The notes under the pieces were generated by a model. The model worked only from the letters and a program-made list of their open reading frames with translations, ran no database searches and was not told the DNA's origin. Shown here piece by piece: positions 1 through 63,687 of a stretch of DNA of 64,000 nt (positions within the stretch are counted from its first letter, which is position 1; the number at the start of each line of letters is the position of its first letter). The position numbers and the translations under genes were made by a program. Source of the DNA: Chiloscyllium plagiosum. Taxonomy: Eukaryota. The stretch is from the NCBI RefSeq assembly GCF_004010195.1, contig NC_057756.1:591805-655804 (forward strand). The letters run 5' to 3'.

Positions 1-216
1 GCTTTTCACGCATCTGTCTCAATGTTCCACATTGATTTCTGAACGATTCTTTATCTTTTGCAGAATTGCAAAAAATGGCTCAAGATTTCGATGACTTAGG
101 TAAGTCAAGCTAACAAGCAACTGAAGAATACGCACATGTCCAAATACTTCTTCTGATATTGATGCAAATACTTCACTGACTCCTCCCACAAGTTTTGCAT
201 GGATCAACAAAATCCA
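1..216 (-). mobile_element. Gypsy (Gmr1-type) gag fragment
   Basis: ORF 19..240 WILLIHAKLVGGVSEVFASISEEVFG aligns with gag at 28153..28380 WVLLIQTKLVGRAGEIFASASEEVSG. Confidence 0.8.
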
Positions 217-4265: not shown

Positions 4266-4267
4266 CA

Positions 4268-7766: not shown

Positions 7767-7793
7767 ACAAAAAATTGAAGAAATGTTTGCAAG
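7767..7793 (+). CDS. 27-nt micro-exon xKKLKKCLQ
   Basis: Long pyrimidine tract, ttag|ACAAAAAATTGAAGAAATGTTTGCAAG|gtaaac; similar to exons 14700 and 16864. Confidence 0.85.
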
Positions 7794-10700
7794 GTAAACT
7801 CGAGCAGAGCTTCCATATTAACATATTGCATATGTGTTACATATTCCGATGTTTTTGAGTCCCTTCAAGTTCTTCCCATAAATAAATTGTTTCTCCTTAA
7901 TATGAAGAAGGTCGTCTTTGTGTTGAACCTCAGGAGATGTGAGGGATAGTGAATGAATATTTCACATCAGGTTTTATACTGGGGAATGAAATGGAGAGTG
8001 GAAAGCTCAGGGGAATAAATGGTATTGTGTCCAAAACATTTCACATTTACAGAAGAGGAAGTTATGGAAATCTTAGAGATTATAAAGGTTGGTAAATCTC
8101 TTGGATCTTATATTATGCATCCCAGAATGCTATGTGAAGTAAGAAGGGAAATTGTGATGCCCCTTGTAGAAGTATCTGATAATTATGAGTGAGGTGCTTG
8201 ATGACTGGAGTTTGGCTAATGTGCCTTTGTTTAAAACAGGTTTGTAAGGAGAAACCGGGAAATTATTCACCTTTGAAACTGACTTCAGTTGTGGGTGAAC
8301 TTGTTGAAGGCGATTTTAAATGATAGGATCTGTAGACATTTATAGAGGCAAAAGGTTCATTACAGATAGCCCACAGAAGTTTCTGTGAGGAATATCATGT
8401 CTTACAAACTTGAGTGAGATCTTTTGAGAACGTTACCAAATTGATGAGGGCAGATTGAGAGATGTCGTTTGCTTTGTTATTAGTAAAGCCTTCGGCAAGA
8501 TTATGCTTGGGAAACTAATTAGTAAAGTTGGTCACATGGGATTCAAGATGAGATTGCCAACTGGACACATAATTGACTTAATGCTCGGAGACAGATTGTC
8601 TGAGGGTTGCCTTTCGGACTGGAGGCCTGTAACCAGCAACGATCCACAATGGTAGTTTTTGATTCTCATTTTTTGTTCGTCATTTATATAAATAATTTAA
8701 TTGATAATATAAAAGGCATGTTCAATAGGTTTGTGGACAACACAGTAGGCAGCGAAGAGGGTTTCCTAGGATTAGGAAACAATCTAATCAAATAAGTCAA
8801 TGGCTGAAAAATGGCAGATGGATTTCAATGGAGTATTTCATTTTGGTACAATAGATAGGAGCAGGACTTATACAATTAATGGTAAGTGTTGTTGAACAGA
8901 GAGACCTACAGATTTAGGTAGATAATTCTTTGAAGTTTGCCTCACATATAGACAGGTTGGTTAAAAGGCATTTAGCAGTTTTGACTCCATTGATTAGTCC
9001 TTTGAGTTTAGGAGTTGGGAAATAATATTGAAATTGAACATTGCTGAGGCCTCTTCTGGAGTACTATGACCAGTTCTGGTCACCCAGTTATAGGAAGGCT
9101 ATTACTAAGCAAGAAATGATTTAGAAGTGGCTTACCAGGATGTTGTCATGTTTGGAAGATTTGAATTATAATTGAAGGCTGGTTAGGATGGAACTTTTTT
9201 CACTGGTCTGTATGAGTTTGGGAGGCGACCTTATAAAGGTTTATAAAATCATAGATAGGTTTAATAGATAGGTTGGTGTATTTTCCTCAGGCTGTGACAT
9301 TTTAAGATGAGTGGACATATTTTTAAGGTGAGAGGAGAGAGTTTTGAAACAGGCATGAGTGGATTATTTTTAAACAAAAGGCGTTTCATCTGTGGAGTAA
9401 ACTGCCTGAGGAAGTGATGGAGTGGGCACAATTTCAAAGTTTAAAAGACACTTAGATACATACATGAATAGAAAATGTTAGAGTGATGAGGGCCAGGAGT
9501 ATGCAGTGGTACTAGTTTAGTTTGTGAATATGACCATACACTGGTTGAACCACAGTGTCTGTTTCCACGATGAATCTATATAACCAAATATTAAATTTAG
9601 AATGACCTTTATTTTTCCATGCAATGTGGGCGACAGTGGCAAAATTGGAATATCTTGTTCATTTGAATATCTCGCTAACCTTACACAAAAGGCTAGAAAG
9701 AGTGAATCAAATGAACATAGTTTTGGAGGCAGGCCAGACAATGTGCAAATGGCTAATTTATTTCTTAAAGACAATTACGAAACAGGTGGTTTTCATAACA
9801 ATCACTGAAATAAGATCTCATTTAATTATTAATTAATTGAATTTATGTTTCACTTGGAATGTATGCCTGCAGGTCAATATTCTCTCGTTTACTAGTTCCC
9901 TGCCATTGCCACCACATTTTTACTATCAATTGCATATCACTTCTCCAATTTATTCTAATGAAATTCTGTCACACTTATTTTTTCAGAAGGCGGAGGCAAG
10001 GATAAAATTGATGGTGAGTAGAATAAAACTCTTTGTGTTGTTTGGTAGGGTTTCAGCCTCGTATGGAGAACAAGCAAAAGTAATATGTTTAGACATCCAT
10101 GTAATCTGAGATAGAACATAGACCTCGAATACACCAGTCAACTCACATGCCTCAGTAAATATGAGAGAGTTCACATTACACTCATCATCATCTATCAATC
10201 GTTGCTTATTGACAGCATCTTGGGAGCAAGCAGTGAGAATACTGCAGAAGTCACTGGATTTTCCCAAAAATTTAGTGATGCTGCTCACGACCACTTGGAA
10301 AATATGTTGTGATCAACCAGCATAATCATAAATGAACCTTTGCATTTCTTTTACTGTTTATTCTTGGGATGTGTGTATCACTGAGCTGACTGGTTTGGGA
10401 AATTAAGCCAGTGAGACTGAAGGAACAAATGTGTAATTCAATATTAAGATTGTGAATAGCTTTGAAGTATATTTGTAGATAACGTGACTGCAATGTTCCA
10501 GCTGAACTTGTCAACTTAGATGATAACAGGCTTGTGTTTGGAAGGTCCTGTCAACGTAGCCTTTGTGCATTTCTGCACCTAGTTTATTGGAGAAGGATTT
10601 GCATGCTATTCAGTTGTCTTTATTCTCTGCCGTGGAAATTGCAGATTGCAATGTTCCCTTGTACCAGTTGCCATTGTCTATCTTGACTGCAGAAACGACC

Positions 10701-13700: not shown

Positions 13701-16700
13701 AATGGCTTTTTGCAAATTCATTCAAGAAGATGTCATCGTTTGCACGTCGAGCAAATGAATGACCAATGGACCAATGCACTCCATGGCAATAAAAAAAAGG
13801 AAAAACTATTGCACCATTAACTCTTTGAATCGGTATTTTGCAGATGTGACTAATTTATGTTTTATTTTCAGAACTATTAATGCTGAAGAATGATCTCCAA
13901 GAAACAGGTCTGAATAGAAGTGTTTTCATTGCTGATGCAGTGTTATATTTGCTGTGGTAGAATGCTAAAGTAGGCAAGCTAAACGTGCTGACAATCTTGA
14001 AACATAGGATAGTATTATACTGAAATGCAGAGTGATGTTCAGTTAAAAGAAAGTATCAAAGAGGATTTTCTTCACTTGAATCCCCACATCCAAATTCCCA
14101 ATGAGACTATAAGCAAATGCAACAATTATTAGAAATCCAGAAGAAAAACAGGAAAATCATAGATAAACTAGTATGTCAGGAAATATCTGAGAAAGCACAG
14201 ATTGTTAATATTTCGGATTGATGACTTCAATCAGAAGCAGTCCTGAAGTGATAATTATGGTTCATCACAAACATTGCATATCCTGTGGATTGGTTCAAAA
14301 GTCTCCAGTTTACTTTTAGGCTACGTGATCATAATGTCTTGATTCATAGCCTCGAGAAGTTTAGTTTACTTATGATGACATAATTGCAACGAATTTTTGA
14401 TCATGTTCTAACTGTTATTCATTTATTACTTACTGTGATACTTTTGAAACTTCCATGATTTCACTAATCACATTTTGATTTATGATCCCTAATTATTAAG
14501 ATACTCAAGTATTGCTATTAACAATATTTTGTGGAACAACTACTTGTAGTATAAAGTAGGAATATATTATTCTCCTATTAACAAAGTGCCTAGAACTTCA
14601 ATACTAATCGTCTTAGAGCGAGAATTTCGAATGATTACGTTATTTGTAAGCATTATCAAGTAATAATAATAATAATAATAATACAATTTCAATATTTAGA
14701 AAACAAGTTGAAGATGTGTGAGAAAGGTAAAAACAGTGAAATGTTTTGCATCCATTGAACGCATTCGGGAAACATTTTATATACCATATCACTACGAACA
14801 GAATAGTCGAATATTCATGATTATTTCATTGTCTTTGATATTGTTAGAGATAAAGAAACAATCTGATGAAAACAGTGAGTGATTGATTTCAGAATCATAC
14901 ACACATGTTTTTGCGACATTTGCCATCGCTGATGTTCACTAAATGATGTTTGTTTGTTTTTACTTCCAATACACAAAAACCGAAAGAGCATGAAAAGTTT
15001 TGTTTGACAATAGACTTAACAACCGAATATTATGACACAGTAATTTGCACATGAAACTATCTCATTGCCAAATGGTTATGACTGGAAAACCTATATCAGC
15101 GTGGTACCATGTCATTTATTTTTCAATCCAGCGGTAGCACAACTAAAGGAAGATCTTCGTGACACAGGTATGTGAGTGACTCTCTGTTACAGGTTTTAAA
15201 ACTTCAATTTTTACATGCCAAACTTGAACTGAATTGCTGAGGTCCTCACTTTATAATCAAGGTGGCCACTCTAAAGCTAATTCAACCTTCTCTATCTCAT
15301 CCTGTCACTCTCTTTCAATGTTGCTGTAATCATGCCTCTCGCCACCACAATTTTCTAGCTGGTGTAAAGCCTGCTTCATTTTCTTGTTGATGACTGTCCA
15401 ATGGTCACCCACCTGCTAATCAGATTGCATCTTTACATCTGTAGAAAATGGTTGCACCATTCAATTTCGATACAAAATCGCTTGCAAAATCTATCACACA
15501 CTTTTAATCTCTTCATGTACTTTATTCTGAAAATGACGTTCATCAACACAATCTACTGCAATCTTATCAGAATTCTGTCCACGAATGTCTTCTCTTAATG
15601 CCGATTTATTTTGAATAAAGCATGACAATGTTATTGGTCACCCACCTTTTTGGGGATATTTCTATTCTGATTAATGATATGACTTGATCAGGCAACACTC
15701 CACTTCATCCCTTCCAGTTTCTCCATTTGGGCCTAATATTCTGTACTCGTGCGATTTCTGATCTTTAATTCGGCAATTGTAATGCTAGGAACTTGCAAGA
15801 GTTATTTTAATCAAATTTTAAACCACAGGAATTCGACATATAAGTGATTGCCACACTAAGTGCGCAGTATTTTTTAATTATGTTTGTTTTCAAGATTTGA
15901 AATTAACTGACCAAATCAATCTTGCCCTCTCACAATGAATTTATAATACTTATAGGATGAAGACACGTTTTCCTTAAAGCGGGGAAGCATTATTGTAATT
16001 GACATGCAATGTATTAATTGCATGTTATTATATATCCCTGTTATGCACCATTGAAATTTCGTCCTCTTTCCACGTAGCAGCAACATCAGAAGACCTGTGG
16101 CTGCCCAATGGTATAATTCCTGCCACTGGGCTCACCATTCCATTTTCACTCCCAACCGCCTTATCGACTTTGCCTTTCGACTGGAAAAAAATCTCTTTAA
16201 CAGTCGTCTCTACAACGTGAGTGCAGCTTCTGGACCAATGATCAGCATCACCTCGGATCTTGCATTGCTGCTGAATGTCCACGCTCAAGTCCCACTTCAT
16301 ACAGAGCTATGTGTGGGCAGGGTAGTCGCTCACAGTCCTAAGGATGTGGGTTAGATTCCACTCTCAGGTGACTGAGAGTTTTCACATTTTCCCCGTGTCT
16401 GCATGAATGTTGTACAGTTCAAAATGTGCAGGCTATGTGGATTAGCCATCGTAACTTGTGTCCATGGATTTGCAGTCTAAGTAGATTATCATAGGAAATT
16501 AACAGGGTTGGTGATGGGTCTGGGTGGGATGCTCTTCAGAGGGTCAAATATCTAGATTTCACAATGGACGGATTCTACTCTAAGTCACAACAGGTGTGAA
16601 AATTGTGGCAATAATGAAAGAAAACTTCGAATATATGCATATTAAATACAAGCCACGTATGATTATTATTACAAGAAATAAAAGGTGTATGAAGAGGAAT

Positions 16701-19700
16701 GGTTTACAAGCATATGGGCCTAATGCTGGCAAATGGGATATTTAGGATATTTGTTCGGCATGGACGAGTTAAACCAAAGGGAGTGTTTACATGCTGTATG
16801 ACACCATGACTCTCCAACTTGTAAGGATTGAGTTACTAATTCATATGCATTACTCTTACTCAGAAAATGAGCTTCAGAGATGCCAAGATAGTAAGTGCGT
16901 TATTATTATTGGTATAATAATATCATCACCAGTAGTATTTACATTCGTACTAATGTTGATGTTTTCAAAACTATTTTTACTAACATTACTCCTAACAAAA
17001 GAATGTCCATGGGAAGACCAGCATTATTTGAAGTTCGTTAGTACACTTCGAAATTGTATCACTGTTTCTTTATTAACTGCAAATGTTTTGCAATACACAA
17101 AGCTACAATTCGTTTTGGAAAGAATACCGAGGTTCTCCAGCCCATGTGTAGTGAAAAAAAACATACTTCCAAGTCAGGATGATGCAGAACTTAGAGGGAA
17201 ATCTGTATGATGTGGTTCTCCCAAGACGTTAAACAAGGTTGCACATTGCCGAGCAGTGATAGTTCATTCAGACAATTTGCTAACAGTTTGCTAACAACAC
17301 GAATTATGACTTCACCTGCTTTTCCAGTTGCCCACATGTCCTTTGGCTGCCTTTAATGCAGAAGTGCTTAAAATGCAGGAATATTCTCTAGTATATTCGA
17401 CAAGGTAAGATATACTCTTCTATCAGGCCAAAATATTCAAATGACGGATTCCTATCGAAGTGAATGGAGGAAATAATTAATTTCAATGACGTCGTTGTTA
17501 AACGATTGATAACTAATTAAAATTTTTGCATTGTACATTTCTCAACGGATTATTGTGTAGCAAATATGCAATCCATTATACAAAGGGACATGTCAAACCT
17601 TAGTTTTATTAGCATTACCAGTGCCTTTATTTTTTATAATTTAATTTTGAAACATTGTTGAGTTTTTAAATGTATTTTATGGAATACACTCCAACAAAAA
17701 AAAACACTCTTCCTTCCTCCCATTCAATGGTCCACCAGACTGTCCATGCGACTGTCTGTCTGTCTGCCTATCTGCCTACACTCGTAGCTCATTTTATGTC
17801 ACAGGACAGTTTCTCATTCCATGATCACTTTGTGCCTAGTCTTTGAAGGTTTGCAAAGCTCAGTCGGTCCTCTGCCTTCCAACATTTATTCACATGAGTA
17901 TTTATTTTTCTCTGGCATGCTCCTAATTTTTTTTCCACTTTATCACTTTCTTACTTCCCTTGAGCCATTGTTCCCTAAAATTAATCAGATTTGTGGAATT
18001 CAGATATTGCATTCAAAGTTTTCCACAACGTCTCTCCTGTACAATCATTTGTGCTATTTCCCTTCTTCACTTTGGCCAACTTCCTCATGCCTTTATGAAA
18101 TTTAAGACACTTGTCTTAAAGCCATGCTTCTCAACCCCAAGGAAAAAATCTATCCTTTTATGATAATGGTTTCTCAGATGCTAGCTTACAAGATGTTTAT
18201 GAAGTTATCATGCCTAACTGTACATTACGAACAGTAAAATTCCCTTGCCTCTGGTGGGATGAGAATATACGCTTGTCCGAATATACACTACAATATCATT
18301 TTGCAGATTATTTTTGCCAGTCAGATCAGCCTAATCTACATGACAATGAATATTATTCTTGTATTTGAAGCATGCCTTCTTGAAAACCCCAGTATTTCTT
18401 ACTTTACACTCTACAATGTGTAGGGATACAAGGTGAGCCTATAAAGTCCTAGCACAGATGAATTCCTACCCATGCTGCGCCCTGCTTTTATCAAACAGAT
18501 TCTGCGTCTTGTAATTATGCTAAGTTATTTTCACATTTATAATGATAACGTCCCAAAAATAATAGTCATAATTACAATGTCAGGCGCATTTGCAGAAAGA
18601 CAATTACTTTTACATTAAAGATATTGTTTCAACAGAATTGTGGAAAACTAAATTTGTAACAGCTTTTTCAATCAGGGGATTTGTATTTGTACTAACAGTC
18701 TAAGTAAATCCTCATAAAATATTGGAAACCTGAAATAATTGAATAAAAAAAACGTAGATGCAATGCAGGGTAAAGGAAAATATAGTCCAAAGTTGAGACA
18801 TGAGTTAAAGCCAACATCTGAAAACAAATTGAAGAGAAAAGAAAGAAAAACACCCGGCAAAAACAATCCTGCCATAAAATTGCTTTGACAAAACCAGTAT
18901 GTATAGACGCATGTTGATTTAGTGATTTCAGGTTGTTTAAGAGTAAAATTGGTTGAATGATTCTGAGATGAAAGATAAGGTCATCTGCTTTGTACCTGCT
19001 TTGAACAGAAGGGGTTGCTCCAGTTTCCACGGCAAGAAATAATTAATTGGAGACGTAAGGATGAGTGAAGTATCAAGTAAACCGAAGTACTTGCTACGCT
19101 TGTGGAATTAGTCACCCATTACTTCTTTCTGTGTGTCTCCCTCTCTCACACAAACGCACAAACGCATTCGCTGAATCTTGTACTTAGTTAATCTATACTT
19201 TAATTACTTTTACTCTCATCACATACTTACACACTCTGATTCATTTCCGCAGTACCTCAGATTCATACTCCCTGTAATTCACTTGATTTTTTTTCTCTAT
19301 CTATGAAACATACTCTTTCAATCCACTGTACTCTCTCCTGTACGAGTTTCGCCTCTCCTTCACTGCCCAATAAGATTACTGTAGTTAGCCTTCCAATTTT
19401 CTTACATTGTCTTTACCTTTGATGCATATGATCCCTTAGTGCCTATGCTTTCATATCAGGTTTTAATGATGTGCTATGTTAATCACATACATTTTTGCAT
19501 TGAATGCACTTACAGATTTTCTTTTCCACTGTACCAGATCTCGCTGCTTCCAAAGCAAATGTGAAGGATTTGGGTGAGAACATATTTTGTTAAATCAGAA
19601 AATGTTACCATGTTTAGGGAATTTCTACTGGTTGAATTGGTTTATTGGTCTTCCTCTGCAGAAAATAAATCTGTCTCTCGGTGACAAGACTAAAAGTGCA

Positions 19701-52700: not shown

Positions 52701-55700
52701 TCCCTACAGTGTGGAAACAGGCCTTTCGGCTCAACTAGTCCACACCCACTCTCCAAAAAGTAACCCACATAGACCCATTCCCCTATCTAATGCACCTAAT
52801 CCTAAAGGCAATTTAGCCTGACCAATTCACCTAACCCGCACATCTTGGAGAGGAATTCGTTAAGTGTGTACTGATTCACTATGTGGATGTACATAGCAGA
52901 GAAGGGGCAAAGCTTGACTTACTCGAGGGAAATAAGGCAGGGCAGGTGACTGAGATGTCAGTGGGGGAGCATTTGGGGCCAGCGACCATAATTCTATTAT
53001 CTTTAAAATAGTGATGGAGAAGGATAGACCAGATCTAAAAGTTGAAGATCTAAATCAGAGACAGGCCAAATTTGACTGTATTAGGCAAGAACTTTCAAAA
53101 GCTGATTAGGGGCAGATGTTCGCAGGAAAGGGATGGCTGGAAAATGGGAAGCCTTCAGAAATGAGATAACGAGAGTCCAGAGAACGTATATTCCTGTTAA
53201 GGTGAAAGGAAAGGCTGGTAGGTATAGGTAATGCTGAATGACTAAGGAAATTGAGGGTTTGGTTAAGAAAACGAAGGAAGCTTATGTAAGGTATAGACAG
53301 GATAGATTGAATAGTAAGTTAAGAGAAAAATAAGGAGGACAAAAAAGGGGACAAGAGATAGTTTTAGCAAAAAGAGTTAAGGAGATTCCAAAGGGTTTTA
53401 CAAGTACATTAAGGATAAAAGAGTAACTAAGAAGAGAATAGAGCCCCGCAACGATAAGCATGGTGACCATTATGTGAAGCCGCAGGAGACGGGGGAGGTA
53501 CTAAAATGATTATGTAACAGCAGTATTTAATGTGGAAAAGGCCATGGAAGATATAGAATGTAGGGAAATAGACGGTGACATGTTTAAAAAAGGCCATATT
53601 TCAGAGGAGGGAGTGCTGGATGTCTTGAAACGCATAAATCCCCAGGACGTGATCAGGTGTACCCTAGAACTCTGGGGGAAGCTGGGATGTGATTGTTTGG
53701 CCTGTTACTGAGGTATTTAAATCATTGAGGATTGAGTGCATTTAGATCTCACGATTCAGAGGCTGTAGAGGTGGAGTGTCTGAAAACATTTTAAGATGCA
53801 GGTAAGGATCCTGTAAAGAGCAGTATTACGAAAAGACTCGAAGTCTTAACTGTTTCTATCTGAAGTAAAGATCCCAGATTGGATGGATTTCCCAAGCAGT
53901 CTCTCTGATTGTTAACAGTTTTCTTTTTCTGGTCGTTTAGACTTTGAAACTGCTCATGTAAACAGATCAACGAGAACAGTCTTAAAGGACCAAATATTGT
54001 AATTCTACTACTAATGTGGATTTTTCGTATGAAGCTAATTATATTAGTTTTGAATGGTGCAGTTTTGACTGGGTCAGTGTTATGTCAGCGGATGATGACA
54101 GTAAATCTGCTTTTAATGGAGAAAACAATCATATCAATGAATCATTTCATTAGATTGGATGCAATGATATGAATGACCAAGGCCATTGTATCAGATTTGT
54201 ATCTTCCTTCATGTCGAAGTTCACGAATAAATCTTCTTTACATGAGAACTCAAGAAGAGTTATGACTCTTTTCTTAAAAAAAAAGGTTTACTTTCAAAGG
54301 AAATTAGCTCATGCTTATTTTTTTTTAATTCCAAAGTTGCAGACCTCGATGAATGTAAAGATGCATTGAAAACTTTGGGTAGGAAAGATTATATTCAATA
54401 TTTTAAAATACATATGAGTTTTATAGCTTTTGTGTACTATTGTCAGCAGCTACACCTAACATTCCGTCAACCAGCATTTCACTGGGAAAATGCAAAATTA
54501 TTTTAACTAATTAGACTATAGTCATAAATCCCTTATTCACACACTTTCATTTTTCTTACATTTGAAGTCTCTAATTCACCAATAGAATACTGAAAACTTC
54601 AACTCCTCTATATCACTTTTGGCAATTACCTGATGGCAAAAATATATCAAATCATCATTCCAGTTGTTGGAAATGTTTATTCCGTGGGTATTGTCCTGGC
54701 AAGACCGTACTGTTAATGCTTTCATATTTAGTCTTAAATTCTGCTCAAGCTGCAATTCAAACTGTATCTCTGTGATTTCTGCCATTCCTATAATTATTAT
54801 TGACCTTGGTACAGTAGTAATTCTATCTGCTTTGCATAATAATTTCCGAGAACTAAACATTGGCAGCAGTACCGTTGCTCATGTGTCCACAAAACTTTCT
54901 TGTTCAAAGGTGTTTTTGTGAAAAGTATTTGGTTTTTAAATGATTTTTAAAGCTCACTTACTTTAAAAATTATAAGCAATCGGTAAACCATTACGGTAAA
55001 CATTAGAACGTAAGACTAATGTGGTGCAGGATAATTCAATGCAGGATTGCAAATCGCTCAATCAATAAAATAAATAATGCACACGAAAAAGTCTATATGT
55101 GTAGGGAGAAAACAATAGCTGTTTCGTTTCAATAGGAAATCCGTTTAAATATTCATAATTATTACAGTAGAATTCATACCTTTACAGCAAATTGGAATTA
55201 AAATTATGCTACTGTAATTTTAACCCAGAGATGTAATGAAATGACAAGGCGAACTCAAAATAAAGCATGGCAAATGGGAAGTTAAATTAACTGGAAAGAA
55301 GCCTGAGTAAAACGTATATTTTAGTAGAACTGGTAAATATGCATCTCCATGGTTCTGGAGAAAAGAAACATTTTGAATATCAAAAAGTTTCAACAAAAAA
55401 TAGTTCGGACCTAAATGTACTTCTAGGAATATATTCATATATTTATGCATTAAAAGCTTTTGAAATAGTTTAGGAAATAAAGGAAGTATAACTAACAATA
55501 TTTTATTGTTCTAGAACGCCAGCAAGCATAGGCTAGCTAATTACAGACTAATTACAGATATTAGCGGTAGGGAAATTAGTGAAAACAAAAACGAGCGACA
55601 GGATTAATCAACAATTAAATAGCAAGTTTTAACCGAGAAGAAGGAGCATAGACTTATTGTTGCAAGATTTATTTTGGCTAATTTAATTGAGTTTTTTTTT

Positions 55701-58700
55701 GCAATAGTGACTCAATATATTAGATGAGGTTCGTGTAATTGTTCTGGTTTTCATAGACCTCAGTAGGCCTTTTGACAGCCGTCCCACACGGAAGGCTGGT
55801 CCAAAAGGTAAGAGTACATGCTGTTCAAGGCATGTTGCAAAATTGATCGAAAATTGACGTGCACATAAGAGGTGAATAGTAACTGTGGCGGATTGCTTTT
55901 TTGAGATTGAAAGCTGTGGTCAGTGGTGTACCATTGGAATGGTACTTGGAATTTGTCTGTATGCAGTGCACACTAATGGCTTGGAGTTGAGTGTAGAATG
56001 CCTAAGTAGAAAGTTTGCAGATGACACAAAGCTTGAAATGCTGTTAAAAGTGATGAGAATAATCTCAGTCTATCAAATACAGATCAATTTGATAATTGGA
56101 TGGAGCAATGGCAGATAGCACTATACATTGAAAAGTATAAATAATGCATTTTGGGATGTCTCATAATGGAAAGATTTACATAAGATATGTTAGTTTATTA
56201 AAAAGTATTGGGACTATCAAATATAACTCGATGTAAAAGTCCATACATATCTGAATGTGTCAGCATAGGTGGATAGGGTGGTGAAGACAGCACACGACCT
56301 TCATAAGGCAGGGTGGAGAATGTAGGAGCAGGAAAGATTTTGCAACTTTATGGAGCATTAGTAAGGTTGCAGTTGAAATATTTCATGCTGCTGTGTTTGC
56401 CACACTATCAGGAGAATGCGATTGCACTAAAGCGAGTGCTGATGACATTTACAGGTTAGGCAGTGAGAAAGTTTCCTCCATGGTAGACTTGTCTAAGATC
56501 AGAGGACATAGGTTTACGATTTTGAAATATGTCATTCAGAGGATATCCTCTGTGTTTCAGAGTAAAAGCATCATCCACAGAATTTAGAAATATGAAACAC
56601 GTTACCTAAGGGAGTGGTGTAAGCACATACTCTTGCAACATTGAAGAATGATCTGACTGAGTACTAACAATACCAGGGTGCAGTGAGTTAAGGCACAGTG
56701 CATGTGATTGGGAATAATTTAATTCGGAGTTAGTGTATCATCATAGACATGGTGGATCTTCTGTGCTATTAAGGTCTATCCTGCTATGACCTCAATAATT
56801 TTCATGGAGATCGATAATTTCGAGGTACAACAGGTAATGGGACCACTATGAGAAAGGGAACAATCTATGCAGGATGAAGAGTGTTGTACTTATATGCACA
56901 CCATAAACGAAACTGTGTAAATAGACTTGTAGAATACACTGAAATTGAGTAAGCCAGAGATATGAATGCAATGGGAACAGGGTGGGGAGCTAAATGCCCA
57001 AGGATATATTACGTATCGAAAGGGTAGGAGAGGGATGGCTGCAACGTTCGTAATACATGAAATTTAATCAATGGCAAAAAAAAACATAGAGGTGGAAGGC
57101 ACACGGGTCTTTCAGGAATGAACAGTTCAACTGAAAAGGAAAAGTGAAATGATAGCGGTTGTGTACCAGCAGTTAGGGTGTGGAGAAGAAAATAAATCAA
57201 AGGTAGAAAAGGCATGTAAGTAAAGCAATATTATGACTATCGTTGGGGGACCTCAATATCCGGGTGGACTGGGAAAATCAGGTTGTGGCGGGATCTTAGA
57301 AAAAAATGAATTCTTGGAAAATCCACGGGATGTGTGGGGCTCTTTATGCATTGTGGTAGTGCTGTCTGAGTAATGGCAAATTCTGAATACAGTGATGTGT
57401 CGTGAGGCTGACTTGGTTCTGGAAGTGATGTTGAAAGAAGCTCCAGGGACTGTTGACCAAACTTGGTATAATTCACCCTGCAGTCTGAGATGTGGAAGAT
57501 TGCATCGGATGCAACGTTATTAGAATTAAGCAAATATACTTCTAAAGTACCATTAAGGGTCGGTGTGGACTTGTTGGGCTGAAGGGCCTGTTTCCATACT
57601 GTAGGGAATCTAATCTAAGACATGAGGGAAGAGATTGCAAAATTTAATTATAAGGGAAATCTTACAGTGACGACAGCAATGACGGGGTAATTCAGGAGGC
57701 AAGCAGAAGGAAGAAGAGACTAATCCAGGGGAGGATGACTTAACCATGGGAGGTCAGAGGTCGCATAAAGGGAAAAGAAAACGTGCAAAATATGACAACT
57801 ATTAAAGGGAAGGCAGAAGATTTGGAGGTTTTAAAAAAAGAGCAGAGGATAACTAAAACAGCAATGAGTGAGGCGTTGGTGATGTGATGAAATGTAATTG
57901 TAACTTAGTTAGTAATATAAAGGAAGATCGTAGGAGTTTTTTTAACATATCTAAAATGTAAGAGAAAGGTAAGAGTAGACATTGAAATTCTGGTAAATGA
58001 GATTGGAGAAGTAGCAATGAGAGAAATGAAATGTCAGTGAGGGTTCCAGAGGACTGAAAATATGACCAACTTAAAAGTCCTGTTTCAGAAACGAGGAAAG
58101 TAGGAGGCAGGAAACTGTAGGCTGAACTTGGTAGTTAACAAGATTTTGCAGTTACATATCAAGGATGAGATTGCTTGAGTACTACGAAGTACAACTAAGA
58201 GAGGATAGAGTCAGCATGGTCTTGTCAAGGACAGCTCATACCTGACAATCTGTTGGAATTTTTTTGAGATAATGAACAAGTTAGAAAAAGGATAGACAGT
58301 GAGGGACGTGATAAATTTGGATTTCCAGAAGGTCTTTGAGAAGTTCTTACTTGGACAGTGCTCAACAAGATAAGATTTCATATTTTTGAGAAATATACTG
58401 GCATGGATACAAGATTAGCTGACTGTCATAATGCAAAACAGAGTTAAAAAGGTCTTTTTCAGGAAGACAGCTGGTGACTCGTGGAGTTCTGCAGGGATCA
58501 CCTTGGAACTACGAGTATTCACGTCATAGGTGTATGATTTAGGTTAAAGAATTTAAGGCTTTGTTGCTAAGTTTGCAAATGATACCAAGTCAGGTGGAGG
58601 GACAGCTAGTTTTGAGGAAGCGTGAATGTGGGCAGGAGTGTTAAAATAAGTGGCAGAAGGAATATATTGTGGGCAAATGTGAGCTTATTAATTTTCATGG

Positions 58701-59359
58701 GAAGAATAAGGATGTAATCTATTTTCAAATGGGGAATGGCTTCGGAAATCTGAATCACAAAGGGATTTACTGGTAGAACTGGTTCAGAATCCTCTAAAGT
58801 TCAGCACTCAAGCTTAGTTAATGATTGGAAAACAAATGCAAAGTTGACAAAGGTGCAATGGAATAGCGGAGCTGACTCAATGGCCTAATTCTGTTCTTGC
58901 ATCTTCGTGTCTTTTTTTTCCAAACATTTGTCATAGAGATGTACAGTATGGAATTAGACACGTTGGTCGAATTCGCCCATGCTGGTCAGGTATACTAAGC
59001 TAATCTAATTCGATTTGCCAGCACTTGGCTCACATATCTCTAAACTCTTCTTATTCATATGCCCATCCATCAACCTTTTAAATGTTGTCATTATGCCAGC
59101 CTTATTAATGCCTTTGGCAGCTCATTTCAAACACGCAAGCATCTTTGTGTGATGAAGTTGCTCCTTAGGTCCCTTTTAAGTTTCTCCCCTCTCAACCTTA
59201 ACTTATGCCCTCTATTTCTGGACTCCACACTGCACTGAAAAGACCTAGACTACTTACCATATCCATGCAGTCCAAGAATTTATAAAACCTCTATATTTAG
59301 TACAAATAATTAAATGATTTTATTTGGAGAAACAACACATCCTGGTAATGGATGAGAGA

Positions 59360-59397
<38 letters not shown>

Positions 59398-62300
59398 CAG
59401 TATTGTTATAATTATTATTGTTATAACTTCTAATGCATAACCTACAATATCTATACTGTCTTATTGAATCCACTCCATCCAGCATCCTAATAAAATATGT
59501 GGTTTTCTCCATTCTAGAAGAAAAACTGAAATCAAAAGAGAATGGTAACTCACTAAGAGATTAGTAGACTGCAAGCAAGTATGATTTGATGTTGTTCTTC
59601 GTGCAAAGAAGTGTTTCCTTAAATATTAGATTACTTTACAGTGTGGAAACAGGCCCTTCGGCCCAACAAGTCCACACCGACCCGCCGAAGCGCACCCACC
59701 CAGACCCATTCCCTACATTTACCCCTGCACCTAACACTACAGGCAATTTAGCATAGCCAATTCACCTAACCTGCACATTTTTGGACTGTGGGAGGAAACC
59801 GGAGCATCCCCACGCAGACACGGGGAGAATGTGCAAACTCCACACAATCAGTCACCTGAGGCGGGAATTGAACCCGGGTCTCAGGCGCTGTGAGGCAGCA
59901 GTGCTAACCACTGTGCCACCGTGCCACCCACCTTGCCTTCTGCTTGCCTTCTCCTCTGTTAGCTCATGGGTACACGTAGTCATGCAGGGAAATGAATAAC
60001 TGTTGATTAGCTAAAGCTTCATTATTACTGTAGAGATGATGGAACTGCCGTGCTTAGGAGCACATCTTGCATGATTTGTTCAGAGTAGGCCAGTGAAAAC
60101 GCATGGAAACAGTGTCCTTTGAAAAAGACTCCAAATAATCAAAGACAGTCAACACGGATTTGCATGAACAAAAAATGGAAGTGAAGCCTTCTTTTGCTTT
60201 TGTAGGCACAATTTGTAGTAGCATAAAGCTGGTCTATTATATTCTCATCACAATTTATAGCTCTACAAAATTAAATAATCCGAATTATTCAAAGTACAGA
60301 AAGAGGCCTTTTGGCCTGCTGTGTCTGTACCAACAAAATATCTGACCAAGTATCACTTGTCAGCTTTTGATTCTTAATCGTGCAACTTATGGCAATTGAC
60401 ATTCCAAGTATCTTGTTAAATTGAATTGATGTTTCAATTCACTAGTGTCAACATGGTTTCATGAATGGCAAGTCGTGCTTGATAAATTTGTTGGAGTTAT
60501 TTGAGGATCCAACTTGCAAAGCATTTGACAAATTGATCTAAAATTTAGTTCCCAACGGGTTAAAGAGTATTGACTTGAATAGCGGATTGGCTGACTGACA
60601 GAAAGTGAGGGTCGGGATAAATGGGTCATTCTTTGCTTCGTGAACTGTAGCAATTCCACAAAGGTTCACTTCTCGGATGTCATCTATTCACAACCTCTGT
60701 AAGCAATACAGTCTACATAAATGATCTGCAAGCAAAGGCAGAGTGTAACAGAGCAGATTCATGGGTGATACTATAATAGGTAGGAGAGCAGTCAGTGTTG
60801 AAGAAACAGCGTTTATAGATGGGCATTGATAGGCTCGGTGATAGGGCCAGAATCAGGCAGATAGATATTAGTGCACATAAGTACACAGTTGTCCATTTTG
60901 GCCAAAGCAAATGAAAATTACTATTAAGGTGGAAACAGATTCAAAGCCCATGAGTGCAGAGGGATCTCTGCATCTATGTACATGAATCTCGGAAAATGGG
61001 TGTGGAGGTGCGGCATATAAGAAGAAAGACAAATTGGGTCCTGGCGTTTATCGCAAAAGAACTGAATTATAATAAAAATGAAGTGCTGTTGCAATTATAT
61101 AAAGCATTAGTGAGACAATACCTGGAGCATTGTCTCCAGTTTTGATCTCCTTACATGAGCAAGAATGTCGTGGCACTGGAGCAGGAGTTTTGCCATTAGA
61201 GGAGCATTTGAATAGCTTGGTCTGGTACTCACATAAAATGAGGGGGGGAGGATCTGATTGAGGTATATGAAATGCTAAACAATATTGATAACAATGCTGA
61301 ACAGATGCGCCCCTTTGTCAGAAAGAGAAGAGGTCATAGATATGGATTGAGCGAAGGAAGGTTCAAAACTGAGATGAGGAGAAATGATTTGTCTTAGAGG
61401 ATTGTGAATCTGTGGAAATCACCGCCCCTAAGTGCAGTGGAGAAAGAATCAATCAATGGAAAGAAATACACATGTTACTGATGAAAAGTGGGACAAAGGG
61501 CTATGGGGAGCAGGTTATATAGTGGACCTAACACCAAGATAAGCTTAACCATGATAATGTAAAATGGCGGAGTGGGGTTGAATGGATGAATTGCCCACTC
61601 CCACTTCTAATTCCTAAGTTCCTCCTTGAACTCCTGTTGTTCCACTGGGCTAGAGATCTAACGAACCTTGATGAAAAATACACACACACACGCACAAATC
61701 CCAGAATATTTGTAAACCTGGTATAATGTAGCTAAAATACAGGCCTGTTATTTATGAAACCAATATATAAGAGCACAGGCGTATTCTTGCCCTATGTGAG
61801 GTTTCCCTACATCAGCAAAATTGAACAGATCAATTATGTCAACTCACAGCCTTCTGTGTTCTGACAAAAAAAATCCTTTCCAATCTTTCTTTCTAACTGA
61901 TGTGCCCGAGTATGTTCAACATCTACAAATTTGAACTTTGAAACATTTCTCATCCTCGCACATTTCTTAAATATTGTAATATAGAGAACACCGGCAGTAC
62001 TTCAGCTACAGCTTTCACAGCCTAATTTTGTTGACAATTACGACTGTATTATTATCCGAGATCTCTTACTTAATAGCTCTGCTAATTAAATCACGTGTAC
62101 ACACAAATGCATTCTTGACCACCTTAACTGTCCACACAGCGACTGTCAGAGATTTCTAGATATTGACAGCTATAGTGCCCTTCTTCCTTCACACTTCTTA
62201 ATGCCCTCCTTTTAACCTATATTAAATGTGTTGCCAGGCTTCCCCAAGTTCATTATCTCACAGATCTGGTTTCTTCAGATTGACCCTTAGCTAGTTCTAT

Positions 62301-63687
62301 TCTGCCCAGGTAATGCATTCAAAGATACCTTCAAATTCAATTCAATTGCTTCTGTTGTCCAAACAAACACTTGAAATATTAACCTGCTCTGATTTTTTCT
62401 AACCACACTATATTCACGTAACAATGGTTTTAGCATCATATGCAACAATATGTCCTAAATAGTACACTTCAAAACTGTTGTCTTTGTTTCAAACTAAACA
62501 CCTACCAATACTTGTTGGATTCGGCCACTTCAAAAAAGTTTAACACAAATAATAATTTTTTAAAAAGCTAACAAATGTCCCTACATCTGTTCAAGTATGG
62601 TAATAATATATACTCTCATGCGAACTGCTCGAACACATTAATTAATCTGTTCATAAACGCATGCAATGGTTATCTTTAATTTATTTTTCTACAAACATTT
62701 TCAGTCTTGCACGGTAAATTTCACCATTCAATATCTATCCATTGGGAAAAAAATTTATCAGGCAGCATCTATACTGAAAGAAGCAAACGTTGAGGAGAAG
62801 CGATGCCCTCATGGTATTATTGCTGACCGTTTATGGGAGATCCAGGTCAAAGCTCGCCATATTAAATGGTGCAGTTTGAGTTCATTGGATATTTGGAATT
62901 AAGAGTATGGTGATGATCATGAATCCATTGCAGATTGTAAGGGGGAAAGGTCTGGTTCACTAATGTCCTTCAAGGAAGGAAGGAGTCTGTCATCCTAGCC
63001 AGGTCTGGTCTACCTATTACTCCAGACTCACATCAATGTGGTTGACTCTTAACTCGTCAAAGAATAAAAAAAAAGTGTCATTGGCTCGGCTAGCATTTAT
63101 TGCTCATCCCGAATTGCCTGGAGGACATTTGAGAATCAATCACATTTCTGTGGATCTGGATTCACATGTAGGCCAGACCATGCCTGGATGGACGTTTCCT
63201 CCCTTAAATGACATAAGTGCATTTTTCCAGATATTCGACAATGAATTCATGTTCAGCGTTAGACTCTTACCTCAAGGTATTTATTGAATTCAAATTCCGT
63301 TATCTGCCACGACGGAATTCGAACCTGGGTCCCCAGGATCTTGCCTGTTTCTCTGGATTAACAGTGCAGCAATTAAAAAAACCTGAAACCTTTCCCTTTC
63401 AAATTGTAAGAAATTAAAAAAAAAAGGTTTGCGCAATTGCAAAAGCCGAGATGGAATAATTACAGAGATTCTCATCTGCAAAATTTGGCTGCTGAATCTG
63501 CAACAAACATAACCTTCAATTCAAAAACAAATGGTTGCTTAATATGTAATAAGTTTAAATTTGCTACGTGGTGTATTTGAAGATTTTAATGGTTTGGCAT
63601 TCACAATTGAAATTTTCAAAACATTTTTGATTTGTTGTTCTTTCTTGACAGAGCTGAATGATTGCAAAAAATTATTGAATGGTTTAG
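7767..63687 (+). CDS. Partial multi-exon gene (internal part only): coiled-coil protein encoded by phase-1 micro-exons of 27 and 36 nt
   Basis: 17 exons, each with ag|...|gt, length 27 or 36, all open in the same phase-1 frame and mutually similar. Spliced product, with the frameshifted exon at 17362 skipped and the one at 25991 bracketed: xKKLKKCLQ EGGGKDKID ELLMLKNDLQET ENKLKMCEK AVAQLKEDLRDT ENELQRCQD NLAASKANVKDL EEALNAKDD ELEDIRKNTNTE GLDTCKKSVKEL [ENKIVIKDD] ELKDLKENVKEL ENQIATMAN ELDTCKENVKDL EKQLAMKDV DLDECKDALKTL EEKLKSKEN ELNDCKKLLNGL. No start or stop seen. Confidence 0.85.
7905..9575 (+). mobile_element. CR1 LINE 3' half, decayed
   Basis: Remnants SCLTNL, SKAFGK, LFVIYINNL, FVDNT; colinear with 41235-42840. 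Confidence 0.85.
9987..10013 (+). CDS. 27-nt micro-exon EGGGKDKID (linker-like)
   Basis: ttattttttcag|AAGGCGGAGGCAAGGATAAAATTGATG|gtgagt; consensus splice sites, phase 1. Confidence 0.75.
10690..11640 (-). mobile_element. CR1 LINE 3' fragment nested in an older decayed repeat (about 10345-12900)
   Basis: Minus-strand WSRKWQ..KSDVVHFG (ORF 11355..11597) and a CR1-like 3' UTR. Confidence 0.7.
13267..13400 (+). mobile_element. Short Penelope-terminus-like repeat
   Basis: cgaaac...cagatgctgccagacctgctgagattttccagca motif shared with 27087-27158, 34381-34587 and 40732-40885. Confidence 0.7.
13872..13907 (+). CDS. 36-nt micro-exon ELLMLKNDLQET
   Basis: ttttcag|AACTATT...GAAACAG|gtctga; similar to exon 15132. 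Confidence 0.8.
14661..14682. repeat. (TAA)7 microsatellite
   Basis: Read directly. Confidence 0.95.
14700..14726 (+). CDS. 27-nt micro-exon ENKLKMCEK
   Basis: tttag|AAAACAAGTTGAAGATGTGTGAGAAAG|gtaaaa. Confidence 0.8.
15132..15167 (+). CDS. 36-nt micro-exon AVAQLKEDLRDT
   Basis: tttttcaatccag|CGGTAG...GACACAG|gtatgt. Confidence 0.85.
16313..16580 (+). mobile_element. Decayed HE1-type SINE
   Basis: Degenerate tRNA head, ttccccgtgtctgc core and ggattctactcta tail. Confidence 0.6.
16864..16890 (+). CDS. 27-nt micro-exon ENELQRCQD
   Basis: ctcttactcag|AAAATGAGCTTCAGAGATGCCAAGATA|gtaagt. Confidence 0.85.
17362..17404 (+). pseudogene. Frameshifted (43-nt) sister of the 36-nt exons, KVLKMQEY...
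   Basis: ctttaatgcag|AAGTGCTT...CGACAAG|gtaaga; first 8 codons follow the pattern of exons 13872 and 15132, but the length is not a multiple of 3. Confidence 0.55.
19538..19573 (+). CDS. 36-nt micro-exon xLAASKANVKDL
   Basis: ttttccactgtaccag|ATCTCG...GATTTGG|gtgaga; NVKDL ending shared with exon 46829. Confidence 0.85.
19720..20340 (-). mobile_element. Old CR1 RT fragment
   Basis: Degenerate similarity to the minus strand of the other CR1 copies. Confidence 0.5.
21569..21595 (+). CDS. 27-nt micro-exon EEALNAKDD
   Basis: gcttttcag|AAGAGGCATTGAACGCAAAAGATGACG|gtattt. Confidence 0.8.
22169..22204 (+). CDS. 36-nt micro-exon ELEDIRKNTNTE
   Basis: ttcttactccttccag|AGTTGG...ACAGAAG|gttggt. Confidence 0.75.
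24226..24468 (-). mobile_element. HE1-type SINE, 5'-truncated
   Basis: Colinear with 43262-43547 and 59626-59929. Confidence 0.9.
25645..25680 (+). CDS. 36-nt micro-exon GLDTCKKSVKEL
   Basis: gtag|GACTGGATACTTGCAAG...GAATTAG|gtcagt; near copy of exons 36799 and 46829, with a weaker acceptor. Confidence 0.75.
25991..26016 (+). pseudogene. 26-nt (one G short) copy of the 27-nt exon, ENKIVIKDD
   Basis: tgtag|AAAACAAGATAGTAATAAAGGATGAT|gtaata; sisters 37133 and 47145 end ...G|gtaatg. Confidence 0.7.
26497..31631 (+). mobile_element. Gmr1-type Gypsy LTR retrotransposon, decayed and internally deleted (LTR-gag-PR-IN-RT fragment-partial LTR)
   Basis: 5' LTR ends gtccataaca at 27590, followed by a degenerate TGG primer site. 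Gag has EEFKNSLP and knuckle remnant CFHYNKVGH; protease ILMDIGSS near 29070; integrase AHELPFGGH and YHPESQGALERWH; RT WSSP and DYRKVN..DAYPIPR. 31340-31631 repeats 27300-27590. Confidence 0.92.
26980..27160. mobile_element. Hairpin-forming Penelope-terminus insertion within the 5' LTR
   Basis: TSD TAGAATGAAAGG at 26968-26979 and 27161-27172; inverted arms 27013-27084 and 27087-27158. Confidence 0.88.
34381..34587 (+). mobile_element. Short Penelope-terminus-like repeat
   Basis: gggctcatgcccgaaacatcaat...ggatgcttgctgacctgctgtgcttttccagca. Confidence 0.75.
36799..36834 (+). CDS. 36-nt micro-exon ELKDLKENVKEL
   Basis: ctcttccag|AACTAAAAG...GAATTAG|gtaagc. Confidence 0.9.
37133..37159 (+). 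CDS. 27-nt micro-exon ENQIATMAN
   Basis: tgtttacag|AAAACCAGATAGCAACAATGGCTAATG|gtaatg. Confidence 0.85.
37386..39710 (-). mobile_element. CR1 LINE, internally deleted: ORF1 region joined to the RT 3' end
   Basis: (catagaa)n tail at 37386; LFSLERRKLRGDLIETYKI; LFVDDTK. ORF1 YTCRKC..ILENCVRELQLELDEL at 39375..39671; junction near 38790. Confidence 0.88.
37403..38086. repeat. 3 x 228-bp tandem repeat of the CR1 3' end
   Basis: aaacttacagcgtaatacagg starts at 37403, 37631 and 37859. Confidence 0.95.
40047..40310 (-). mobile_element. HE1-type tRNA-derived SINE
   Basis: Minus strand gggtggcacagtggttagcagtgct...ggttcaattccc (A/B boxes); ctaatcta tail. Confidence 0.92.
40732..40885 (+). mobile_element. 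Short Penelope-terminus-like repeat
   Basis: gaagggcttatgcccgaaacg...gatgctgcctgacctgc..ttttccagca. Confidence 0.75.
41235..42835 (+). mobile_element. CR1 LINE, 5'-truncated, RT still open over 212 aa
   Basis: WKIANVVPL..PGNYRPVSLTSVVGKVLE..SQHG..CLTNL..YMDFSKAFDKV..QGSVLGPLLF; FANDTK; LRGYLIETYKI. Confidence 0.95.
43262..43547 (-). mobile_element. HE1-type tRNA-derived SINE
   Basis: tRNA-like head with A/B boxes; colinear with the other copies. Confidence 0.92.
44717..45356 (+). mobile_element. Solo Gypsy LTR with 4-bp TSD
   Basis: TG...CA termini flanked by ACAT (44713-44716, 45357-45360); 3' part resembles the LTR end at 5520-5631. Confidence 0.8.
46829..46864 (+). CDS. 36-nt micro-exon ELDTCKENVKDL
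   Basis: ttttccaccattccag|AACTGG...GACTTAG|gtgagg. Confidence 0.9.
47145..47171 (+). CDS. 27-nt micro-exon EKQLAMKDV
   Basis: atttacag|AAAAACAGCTAGCAATGAAGGATGTTG|gtaatg. Confidence 0.88.
49260..50500 (-). mobile_element. Penelope-like element with an inverted segment
   Basis: Minus strand CSQCGLLYIKETECKLQDSFREHL (GIY-YIG type). From about 50090 the upstream RT-thumb region lies on the + strand (LPVCGPLHL / NAITYSQF remnants). Confidence 0.8.
52349..52614 (-). mobile_element. HE1-type SINE nested in CR1
   Basis: Full head gggcggcacggtggttagcactgctgcc; flanked by gttat on both sides. Confidence 0.9.
52699..52846 (-). mobile_element. HE1-type SINE 3' fragment nested in CR1
   Basis: tccctacagtgtggaaacagg...ccaattcacctaac. 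Confidence 0.85.
54343..54378 (+). CDS. 36-nt micro-exon DLDECKDALKTL
   Basis: T-tract then ttgcag|ACCTCG...ACTTTGG|gtagga; same L-x-x-C-K pattern as its sisters. Confidence 0.85.
55560..56790 (+). mobile_element. Old CR1 RT/3' fragment
   Basis: KFADDTKL in ORF 55885..56118. Confidence 0.75.
56850..58920 (+). mobile_element. Old CR1 ORF2 remnant with a 60-nt HE1 tail inserted near 57555-57617
   Basis: Remnants SQHGLVK, LDFQKVFEK and KFANDTK. Confidence 0.7.
58930..59300 (-). mobile_element. CR1 3' end fragment
   Basis: Reverse complement of a CR1 3' UTR (gtcatagagatgtacag...tttataaaacctctata). Confidence 0.7.
59360..59421. repeat. (ATT)n microsatellite, imperfect at the 3' side
   Basis: Read directly. 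Confidence 0.95.
59518..59544 (+). CDS. 27-nt micro-exon EEKLKSKEN
   Basis: ttttctccattctag|AAGAAAAACTGAAATCAAAAGAGAATG|gtaact. Confidence 0.85.
59626..59929 (-). mobile_element. HE1-type SINE, full length
   Basis: Minus strand gggtggcacggtggcacagtggttagcactgctgcctcacagcgcc...gggttcaattccc. Confidence 0.95.
60450..61625 (+). mobile_element. Old CR1 RT/3' fragment
   Basis: QHGFMNGKSCLINL; VLLQLYKALVRQYLEHCLQF. Confidence 0.8.
62780..63385. mobile_element. Two adjacent fragments of old shark interspersed repeats (Deu-SINE-like; family uncertain)
   Basis: tctggttcactaatgtccttcaaggaagga...tggtctacct on +, and its approximate reverse complement atgtaggccagacca near 63166; similar to 33180-33370. 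Confidence 0.45.
63652..63687 (+). CDS. 36-nt micro-exon ELNDCKKLLNGL
   Basis: ttctttcttgacag|AGCTGA...GGTTTAG|gtgaga. Confidence 0.88.

Follow-up and report, generated by a model that had tools for sequence, protein, structure and literature searches.

An array of at least 92 phase-1 micro-exons in Chiloscyllium plagiosum, probably encoding the coiled-coil rod of a very large B30.2 gene

We analysed a stretch of 64,000 nucleotides (nt) from the shark Chiloscyllium plagiosum, called the window below, which corresponds to positions 591805-655804 of the forward (+) strand of contig NC_057756.1 (hereafter C47) in a genome of 3.56 Gb. A first-pass annotation, made from the letters alone, had proposed that it holds a gene made of 17 phase-1 micro-exons of 27 or 36 nt, mostly alternating, between window positions 7767 and 63687. 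Scanning the window for AG-N27/36-GT with an open phase-1 frame, we recovered all 17 of them, eight with 27 nt and nine with 36 nt (together 540 nt), each with AG/GT borders and phase 1 open, and the translation of the last five is exactly the one that had been quoted. The borders of the two outermost were read directly: ttcttAG/ACAAAAAATTGAAGAAATGTTTGCAAG/GTAAAC for exon 7767-7793 and cttgacAG/AGCTGAAT...GGTTTAG/GTGAGA for exon 63652-63687. Two further exons lie in the window (Table 1), one at 64-99 and one of Gly-rich hinge type at 9987-10013, the latter probably left out of the initial count.

The array is not limited to this interval, phase-1 exons being found well beyond both of its ends. 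In the 353 kb that we examined from C47:491805 onwards (the window plus 100 kb upstream and 189 kb downstream), it is documented over 329 kb, from C47:500257 to 829527 (window coordinates -91548 to +237723), on the + strand only, with at least 92 phase-1 exons that are each exactly 27 nt (53 exons) or 36 nt (39 exons) long. Introns have a median length of 2185 nt and range from 119 to 19459 nt, and the coding share of the span is 0.86%. The array extends to the upstream limit of the examined sequence, and the last exon found is 15 kb short of the downstream limit. The alternation of 36 and 27 nt holds from 19538 on, where 43 of 57 junctions alternate, and fails upstream of it, where 27-nt exons predominate (24 of 34).

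Several controls against chance were made. With length-specific position weight matrices (PWMs) applied to 334 kb (1488 candidates scored on the + strand and 1310 on the - strand), 82 + strand exons (45 of 27 nt and 37 of 36 nt) outscore the best - strand candidate, a count that is circular, since the matrices were trained on the exons that they score and only the part in the window was cross-validated; the further exons, up to 92, were added by eye. The cross-validation (CV) model combines splice-site PWMs with amino-acid composition, accepts any length and was trained on 53 exons outside the window. With this model, the window has 16 separate + strand places that score above the best - strand candidate (15.6), and four exons of the initial list (16864, 37133, 25645 and 14848) are slightly under that mark; one of the 16 winners, a 39-nt candidate at 8053-8091, was rejected for its resemblance to open reading frames (ORFs) of long interspersed nuclear elements (LINEs) elsewhere in the region. 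The weakest call, 14848-14874, was retained because of its GTGAGT donor, its open frame and its fit to the coil. A length-blind scan of the 334 kb (12-99 nt, any length) gave 78 + strand candidates over the 10th-best - strand score, 67 of which have 27 nt (37) or 36 nt (30), the other 11 being of 12-21 nt; among the best 60 candidates on the - strand there is one of 27 nt and none of 36 nt. Genome-wide, a 32-place pattern made of the 'EKLKxK' 27-nt exon and its splice sites has five matches in 3.56 Gb, all on the + strand of C47 at 651-733 kb, and the reversed-pattern control has none. Of the 14 genome matches of a first 36-nt exon pattern, 7 are on the + strand of C47 (3 control matches), and of the 52 matches of a looser one, 11 are, in two clusters (40 control matches); once one mismatch is allowed, the search yields noise (202 matches versus 184 in the control). 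Strand and length bias, together with the genome-wide pattern matches, rule out chance and a dispersed repeat derived from transposable elements: the exon array is specific to one strand and unique in the genome. For a collagen-type origin of the 27- and 36-nt sizes we found no support in the sequence.

Table 1. Exons and exon-like features of the array in the window (PWM, score with the length-specific matrices; CV, score with the model trained on 53 exons outside the window, for which the best - strand candidate has 15.6)
Feature	Peptide	Position in window	Strand	PWM	CV	Remarks
Exon, 36 nt	xLQKMAQDFDDL	64-99	+	33.4	28.5	Phase 1; upstream of the range first proposed
Exon, 27 nt	DKKLKKCLQ	7767-7793	+	26.7	28.7	Direct reading
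Exon, 27 nt	EGGGKDKID	9987-10013	+			Gly-rich hinge type; splice score 21.8, coding score neutral; strong ttttttcag/gtgagt borders
Exon, 36 nt	ELLMLKNDLQET	13872-13907	+	31.6	23.9	Weak donor GTCTGA
Exon, 27 nt	ENKLKMCEK	14700-14726	+	24.4	21.8	
Exon, 27 nt	EIKKQSDEN	14848-14874	+	7.4	12.8	Weakest call; last base A; both scores under control threshold
Exon, 36 nt	xVAQLKEDLRDT	15132-15167	+	25.0	16.9	
Exon, 27 nt	ENELQRCQD	16864-16890	+	21.5	14.4	CV slightly below best - strand candidate
Exon, 36 nt	xLAASKANVKDL	19538-19573	+	43.9	20.7	
Exon, 27 nt	EEALNAKDD	21569-21595	+	37.3	23.4	
Exon, 36 nt	ELEDIRKNTNTE	22169-22204	+		21.1	Weak donor GTTGGT; under threshold with length-specific PWM
Exon, 36 nt	xLDTCKKSVKEL	25645-25680	+	36.3	13.8	Weak acceptor, donor GTCAGT; CV under control
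Dead partner exon, 26 nt for 27		25991-26016	+			One base lost relative to copies 37133 and 47145 (three-way alignment)
Exon, 36 nt	ELKDLKENVKEL	36799-36834	+	48.7	30.8	
Exon, 27 nt	ENQIATMAN	37133-37159	+	28.4	14.3	Paralogue of 47145 exon
Exon, 36 nt	ELDTCKENVKDL	46829-46864	+	58.2	32.4	Exact match of genome-wide 36-nt patterns
Exon, 27 nt	EKQLAMKDV	47145-47171	+	30.2	21.0	
Exon, 36 nt	DLDECKDALKTL	54343-54378	+	40.5	22.5	
Exon, 27 nt	EEKLKSKEN	59518-59544	+	39.2	27.6	One of the 5 genome-wide 27-nt pattern matches
Exon, 36 nt	ELNDCKKLLNGL	63652-63687	+	48.7	31.7	Direct reading

Joined, 89 of the exons yield a stop-free run of 917 codons. All 89 have an open phase-1 frame (92 of 92 in the full list), openness having been a selection criterion, compared to 43 and 23 exons open in the other two frames. 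Of the 89, 80 finish with G and 78 start with A, and the codon shared by two exons therefore reads G-A(A/G/T/C) in nearly all cases, with the junction at the hyphen; this places Glu or Asp at almost every junction and means that any exon can be joined to any other. In the 73 pairs of closest paralogues, differences at codon positions 1, 2 and 3 number 220, 172 and 280. The identity of an exon with its closest paralogue is 0.70 for 27 nt (n=53) and 0.67 for 36 nt (n=39), compared to 0.54 and 0.46 in intronic segments matched for A-richness, and the intron flanks of the same pairs, compared without gaps, are at background (0.31-0.32). This substitution pattern fits purifying selection on the exons. 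The proposal that the 36+27 pair acts as a unit was borne out by the units at 25.6, 36.8 and 46.8 kb, the three youngest, which can be aligned through exon, intron and exon with a mean column identity of 78%, the duplicating module being the pair. Some members show defects: splice sites are weak at 13872, 22169 and 25645, inclusion of the 26-nt partner exon at 25991-26016 would shift the frame, and the 25645 unit is probably a decaying duplicate. The whole array could be imagined as a relic, formerly functional, now unexpressed and slowly decaying, and the frame-shifted pseudo-exon, the three weak splice sites and the fact that the array is known from genomic DNA only would be in keeping with this; we regard it as very improbable, because codon-position bias and the conservation of exons over introns that have diverged to background argue for continuing selection, as do the open frames, even if openness served to select the exons.

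The conceptual product of the 92 exons comprises 945 amino acids (aa) of a rod that is at least this long, and forms an alpha-helical heptad coiled coil, as had been suggested at first. Hydrophobic residues recur with a period of 3.5 residues (power 2.7, compared to a maximum of 1.7 in 1000 shuffles), and from 19538 on there is a 21-aa repeat, with a lag-21 identity of 0.33 versus 0.08-0.17 at lags 7-16 and 24. The exon alignment gives the repeat consensus ELxxCxxxLKxL for the first exon of the pair and EEKLKxKEK for the second, with Leu or Val at heptad place 'a' and Cys or Leu at 'd'. As many as 26 of the 35 Cys lie within L-x-x-C-x-x-x-[LVIAM], at the core 'd' position, the shuffle maximum being 6. 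The part upstream of 19538 has the same exon sizes in another order and carries its Cys in the 27-nt exon. The rod is broken by Gly/Pro 'hinge' exons (ESKEGPTTH, ESKGDPEIH and EGGGKDKID); two non-helical Gly/Pro exons of 27 nt (window coordinates -32452 and -10035) are plainly paralogous to each other. If continuous, the rod of 945 aa would be about 140 nm long.

Through the looser 36-nt pattern, a second array of 36-nt Cys exons came to light on the same contig, 3.7 Mb downstream, at C47:4308202-4387137 (+). A SPRY search of the genome gave, among the 150 candidates scored, a single match on C47, at 4577660-4577983 (+), 190 kb past this sister array. The PRY/SPRY exon that contains it (within C47:4577441-4578140) opens after ttttgcAG with two bases, followed by 172 codons and a stop, and thus has phase 1 like the micro-exons (Pfam SPRY, E 4.6e-18). 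Among its genomic paralogues the best (59% identity, E 1e-67) is another PRY/SPRY exon at C47:994524-995036 (+), on the same strand as the array of the window and 165 kb downstream of its last micro-exon. The search for a downstream B30.2 domain, advised in the first-pass annotation, was therefore successful on the proper strand, and the terminal exon of the sister array provides a phase-1 parallel. The sister array and its PRY/SPRY exon are probably a paralogous giant gene. The link between the window's array and the B30.2 exon at 994.5 kb, which we consider probable, rests on position, strand, the parallel of the sister array and a chimaera protein model described in the next paragraph. A third paralogue of the B30.2 exon is found at C47:1296638-1297138 (-), with 42% identity. 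Most of the 150 scored SPRY exons are on another contig, C37, at 9.0-34.4 Mb, and point to a very large cluster of B30.2 (TRIM-like) genes there.

A search with the sister-array SPRY exon against 1.84 billion representative proteins led to Callorhinchus milii XP_042192744.1 (1697 aa), whose C-terminal SPRY is 41% identical to it. This is an automatic model with a similarity-based name, 'nuclear-pore anchor-like' (an older model, XP_007898089.1, is called 'myosin-2 heavy chain-like'), and consists of a 13-residue hydrophobic start, ~1,400 aa of coiled coil and the SPRY. The related models contain no 19-residue window with a mean hydropathy >1.6, and the hydrophobic N-terminal segment appears closer to a signal peptide than to a membrane helix. 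The chimaera protein is a homologue in its rod as well: when compared with 163 proteins, the conceptual shark peptide matched only this one and its older model, and blastp against the rod gave 58.9 bits, the shuffle maxima being 24.6 (residues shuffled) and 29.6 (7-residue blocks). The two share E-L-x-x-C-x-x-x-L-K; extended motifs number 14 in the conceptual peptide, and E-L-x-x-C-x-x-x-L is present at 7 places in the chimaera protein, which also has tandem 12-aa and 8-aa modules starting with E or D, the outcome expected from duplicated phase-1 micro-exons. The closest B30.2 sequences in other cartilaginous fishes are Leucoraja 'TRIM69-like' (XP_055510696.1), Narcine 'zinc-binding protein A33-like' isoforms and Scyliorhinus 'TRIM39-like' (37-45% identity). 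The Leucoraja model has the same layout of hydrophobic N-terminus, coiled coil and B30.2, and the predicted isoforms of a Narcine coiled-coil-B30.2 gene are set apart by cassettes of exactly 9 aa (DEKKARNSL) and 6 aa. In the skate, ray and Scyliorhinus models the coil has only ~100-200 aa; these may be either short paralogues or truncated models. Pfam applied to XP_042192744.1 and three relatives found only SPRY (and PRY in one of them), with no RING or B-box despite the TRIM names. A word-based protein index returned no long relative of XP_042192744.1 other than its own older model, which is weak evidence, and annotation may truncate giant coiled-coil-B30.2 genes of elasmobranchs.

The first-pass annotation had also suspected an immune receptor, with immunoglobulin (Ig), transmembrane (TM) or lectin exons in the vicinity. 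Near the array, our searches turned up no exon of the IgV/IgC, TM or C-type lectin kind. A Pfam scan of 150 of the 163 + strand ORFs of at least 88 aa in the 334 kb (the 13 shortest and 7 border-spanning ORFs were left out) gave retroelement domains only (RVT_1, endonuclease, RNase H), with no large host exon and no Ig; these 150 ORFs contain no zinc finger either, and no RING/B-box search was made in the shark genome. A scan of the 353 kb for TM segments and first exons returned one TM-like phase-1 candidate, at -89803, which lies in a T-rich probable repeat and was rejected. Genome-wide, Lectin_C has 43 matches (all 133 candidates scored), none of them on C47; C2-set_2, an IgC domain of the B7/butyrophilin type, has 114 (150 of 302 candidates scored), of which 12 are on C47, all at 5.7-10.2 Mb and upstream of neither array; the V-set search, in which 150 of 1319 candidates were scored, is uninformative on the surroundings of the array. 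As a side observation, the C2-set_2 matches on C47 (10.7 Mb long) lie at 5.69-10.21 Mb and include a V-set/C2-set pair at 10206275-10208261, and this group suggests a B7/BTN-like Ig gene cluster on the same contig as the coiled-coil-B30.2 genes.

These searches bear on the possibility that the gene encodes a membrane receptor of the butyrophilin (BTN) or BG type, with IgV(-IgC) and TM exons upstream, the micro-exons specifying a cytoplasmic heptad tail, and a B30.2 end. The BTN design does combine heptad micro-exons of phase 1 with a B30.2 exon of the same phase after them, the cytosol is the usual place of TRIM/BTN-type B30.2 domains, and C47 bears 12 of the 114 C2-set_2 matches and the pair at 10.2 Mb; BG tails have 27-37 such exons (PMC5938342). 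Nevertheless, we find such a receptor unlikely: neither the 100 kb examined upstream nor the array itself contains an Ig or TM exon, the C2-set_2 matches on C47 are confined to 5.7-10.2 Mb, XP_042192744.1 and a second related model lack both an Ig domain and a hydrophobic window of 19 residues, and the exons have 27 or 36 nt, not 21. The butyrophilin-like receptor first envisaged is thus not supported, the related models starting with a 13-residue hydrophobic stretch and being devoid of Ig domains.

We favour another interpretation and hold it to be likely: the window would be an internal slice of a chondrichthyan coiled-coil-B30.2 gene of ~0.5 Mb, on the + strand, with a rod made by micro-exons, and probably ending at C47:994524-995036. 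It would be a member of a family of cartilaginous fishes whose type is XP_042192744.1. Such a gene would consist of at least 92 symmetrical phase-1 micro-exons, separated by retroelement-filled introns of 0.1-19 kb, and then a B30.2 exon; all exons would be spliced into one mRNA, of which the exon at 994.5 kb would be the last. From 19538 on, the unit of 36+27 nt would provide 21 aa, i.e. three heptads, and the array probably grew by tandem duplication of these register-neutral pairs; duplication, loss or skipping of a pair would then change the length of the rod by ~3 nm and leave the heptad register intact. For the protein, we infer a parallel homo-oligomeric rod with a ligand-binding B30.2 head at its end. 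A role as sensor or tether would be plausible because TRIM, butyrophilin and pyrin proteins use B30.2 domains to bind ligands. As to its location, a hydrophobic start too short for a membrane helix, and regular core Cys that suggest disulfides, point to the outside of the cell; the TRIM/BTN-type B30.2 and a basic cluster after the hydrophobic segment of XP_042192744.1 point to the cytosol. One tentative extension, which we rate as possible and rather doubtful, is that these genes form an undescribed chondrichthyan class, a coiled-coil counterpart of collectins and ficolins, in which the B30.2 head is carried by an extracellular, disulfide-stapled rod of more than 140 nm encoded by more than 100 interchangeable 27/36-nt exons. 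An extracellular stalk of this kind may follow from the signal-like N-termini of the family and the core 'd' Cys every 21 residues; it would have its length adjusted in steps of 3 nm over evolution and perhaps also through the skipping of exon pairs.

Besides the circular scoring mentioned above, several observations weigh against the single coiled-coil-B30.2 gene. Tracking of the register along the conceptual chain shows long in-phase runs with phase shifts between them, which may reflect exons that were missed or are skipped, or genuine breaks in the coil. One unit or more (25645 and its partner 25991) is probably in decay, and the splice sites of several exons are weak. The coiled-coil similarity to XP_042192744.1 is possibly in part compositional, and the N-terminal 396 aa of this protein have no match in the shark genome. 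Towards the 3' end, the final 15 kb examined (window coordinates 237724-253000) yielded no exon, the three exon patterns have no match between 0.81 and 0.99 Mb, and C47:844805-994523, between the array and the B30.2 exon, lies outside the sequence examined, so that this exon may be that of a separate gene. The array would in that case represent one or more coiled-coil-only genes and the B30.2 exon, beyond 165 kb that are largely unexamined, would be a neighbour's; chicken BG heptad tails can end without B30.2 (PMC5938342). We consider this quite improbable, since C47 has two cases of an array with a B30.2 exon downstream on the same strand, these two exons being mutual closest relatives, rod and SPRY are joined in a single chimaera model, and the B30.2 exon of the sister array opens in the phase of the micro-exons.

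The introns within the window contain a number of repeats. A 228-nt unit in three tandem copies (96% matches) lies at 37403-38091, directly downstream of the 36799/37133 exon pair, and is adjoined by a segment (38109-38766) that has an inverted copy at 41881-42541 with 77% identity. A dispersed repeat of 200-300 nt is present in at least six copies of 80-95% identity (24225-24444, 40059-40313, 43258-43546, 52348-52617 and 59622-59920, with an inverted copy at 57557-57614); ARAGORN and Rfam find nothing in these copies, nor any tRNA or Rfam feature elsewhere in the window. Retroelement ORFs on the + strand are seen at 4202-4717 and 41285-41923 (RT RNase H, E 3e-13; RVT_1, E 5e-19), along with a 169-aa ORF at 30112-30618 (+) that has no Pfam match. 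An (ATT)n microsatellite of ~22 copies occupies 59360-59424, 94 nt upstream of the 59518 exon.

If transcribed in the way proposed here, the gene would be among the most extreme vertebrate micro-exon genes, with ~100 exons in a locus of 329 kb or more, of which they fill under 1%. Each exon of 27 or 36 nt would have to be recognised amid retroelement-rich introns of up to 19 kb, which would make the locus a natural test case for exon definition, and the array would likewise be one for the growth of a repeat protein by duplication of exon pairs with its structural register kept. The design of heptad micro-exons plus B30.2, as in butyrophilins and chicken BG, would be extended to the base of jawed vertebrates, on quite a different scale. 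The locus also points to a B30.2 family whose members appear to be misleadingly named by automatic annotation ('nuclear-pore anchor-like', 'TRIM69-like') or truncated.

As to novelty, searches of the full-text literature outside subscription-only papers gave no description of a 36+27 design or of this family; a homologous public model, XP_042192744.1, does exist, on which the same searches yielded no paper. The chimaera protein resembles the shark array in its E-L-x-x-C-x-x-x-L-K coil and its C-terminal SPRY, and has Gly/Thr-rich hinges followed by a Cys-containing helix; it differs in having a less regular rod (lag-21 identity 0.11 versus 0.33), the comparison being made with a protein model only. 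A 21-residue module of three heptads in a coiled-coil stalk is also known from CD23 (FCER2), where 21-aa repeats, one per 63-nt exon, are present in few copies next to a C-type lectin domain. The CD23 unit is thus a single exon with a lectin domain behind it, whereas in the shark it is a pair of exons on a contig with no Lectin_C match. Chicken BG tails are encoded by 27-37 exons, mostly of 21 nt with some of 18 or 24 nt, that have a split first codon and 'a' and 'd' residues across exon borders (PMC5938342), and in butyrophilins, which are present in cartilaginous fishes, the number of heptads varies among members (PMC12841164). BG and BTN tails share with the shark array a coil made from many tiny exons, a split first codon, heptads that run across exon borders and an exon number that varies between paralogues, and in BTN a B30.2 exon comes after the heptad exons as in the proposed shark gene. 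The BG/BTN exons of 21 nt carry one heptad each, whereas in the shark the register is restored only by the pair of 27 and 36 nt. Exons of 21 nt of the BG/BTN kind account for 4 of the 78 candidates of our length-blind scan, which is noise level, and the phase is equal in the two systems. The shark array is further set apart by its at least 92 exons over at least 329 kb, its regular core Cys and the lack of Ig and TM exons in the sequence searched. Judged by analogy of design, the closest analogue of the array is the set of 21-nt heptad exons that encode the tails of chicken BG proteins and butyrophilins.

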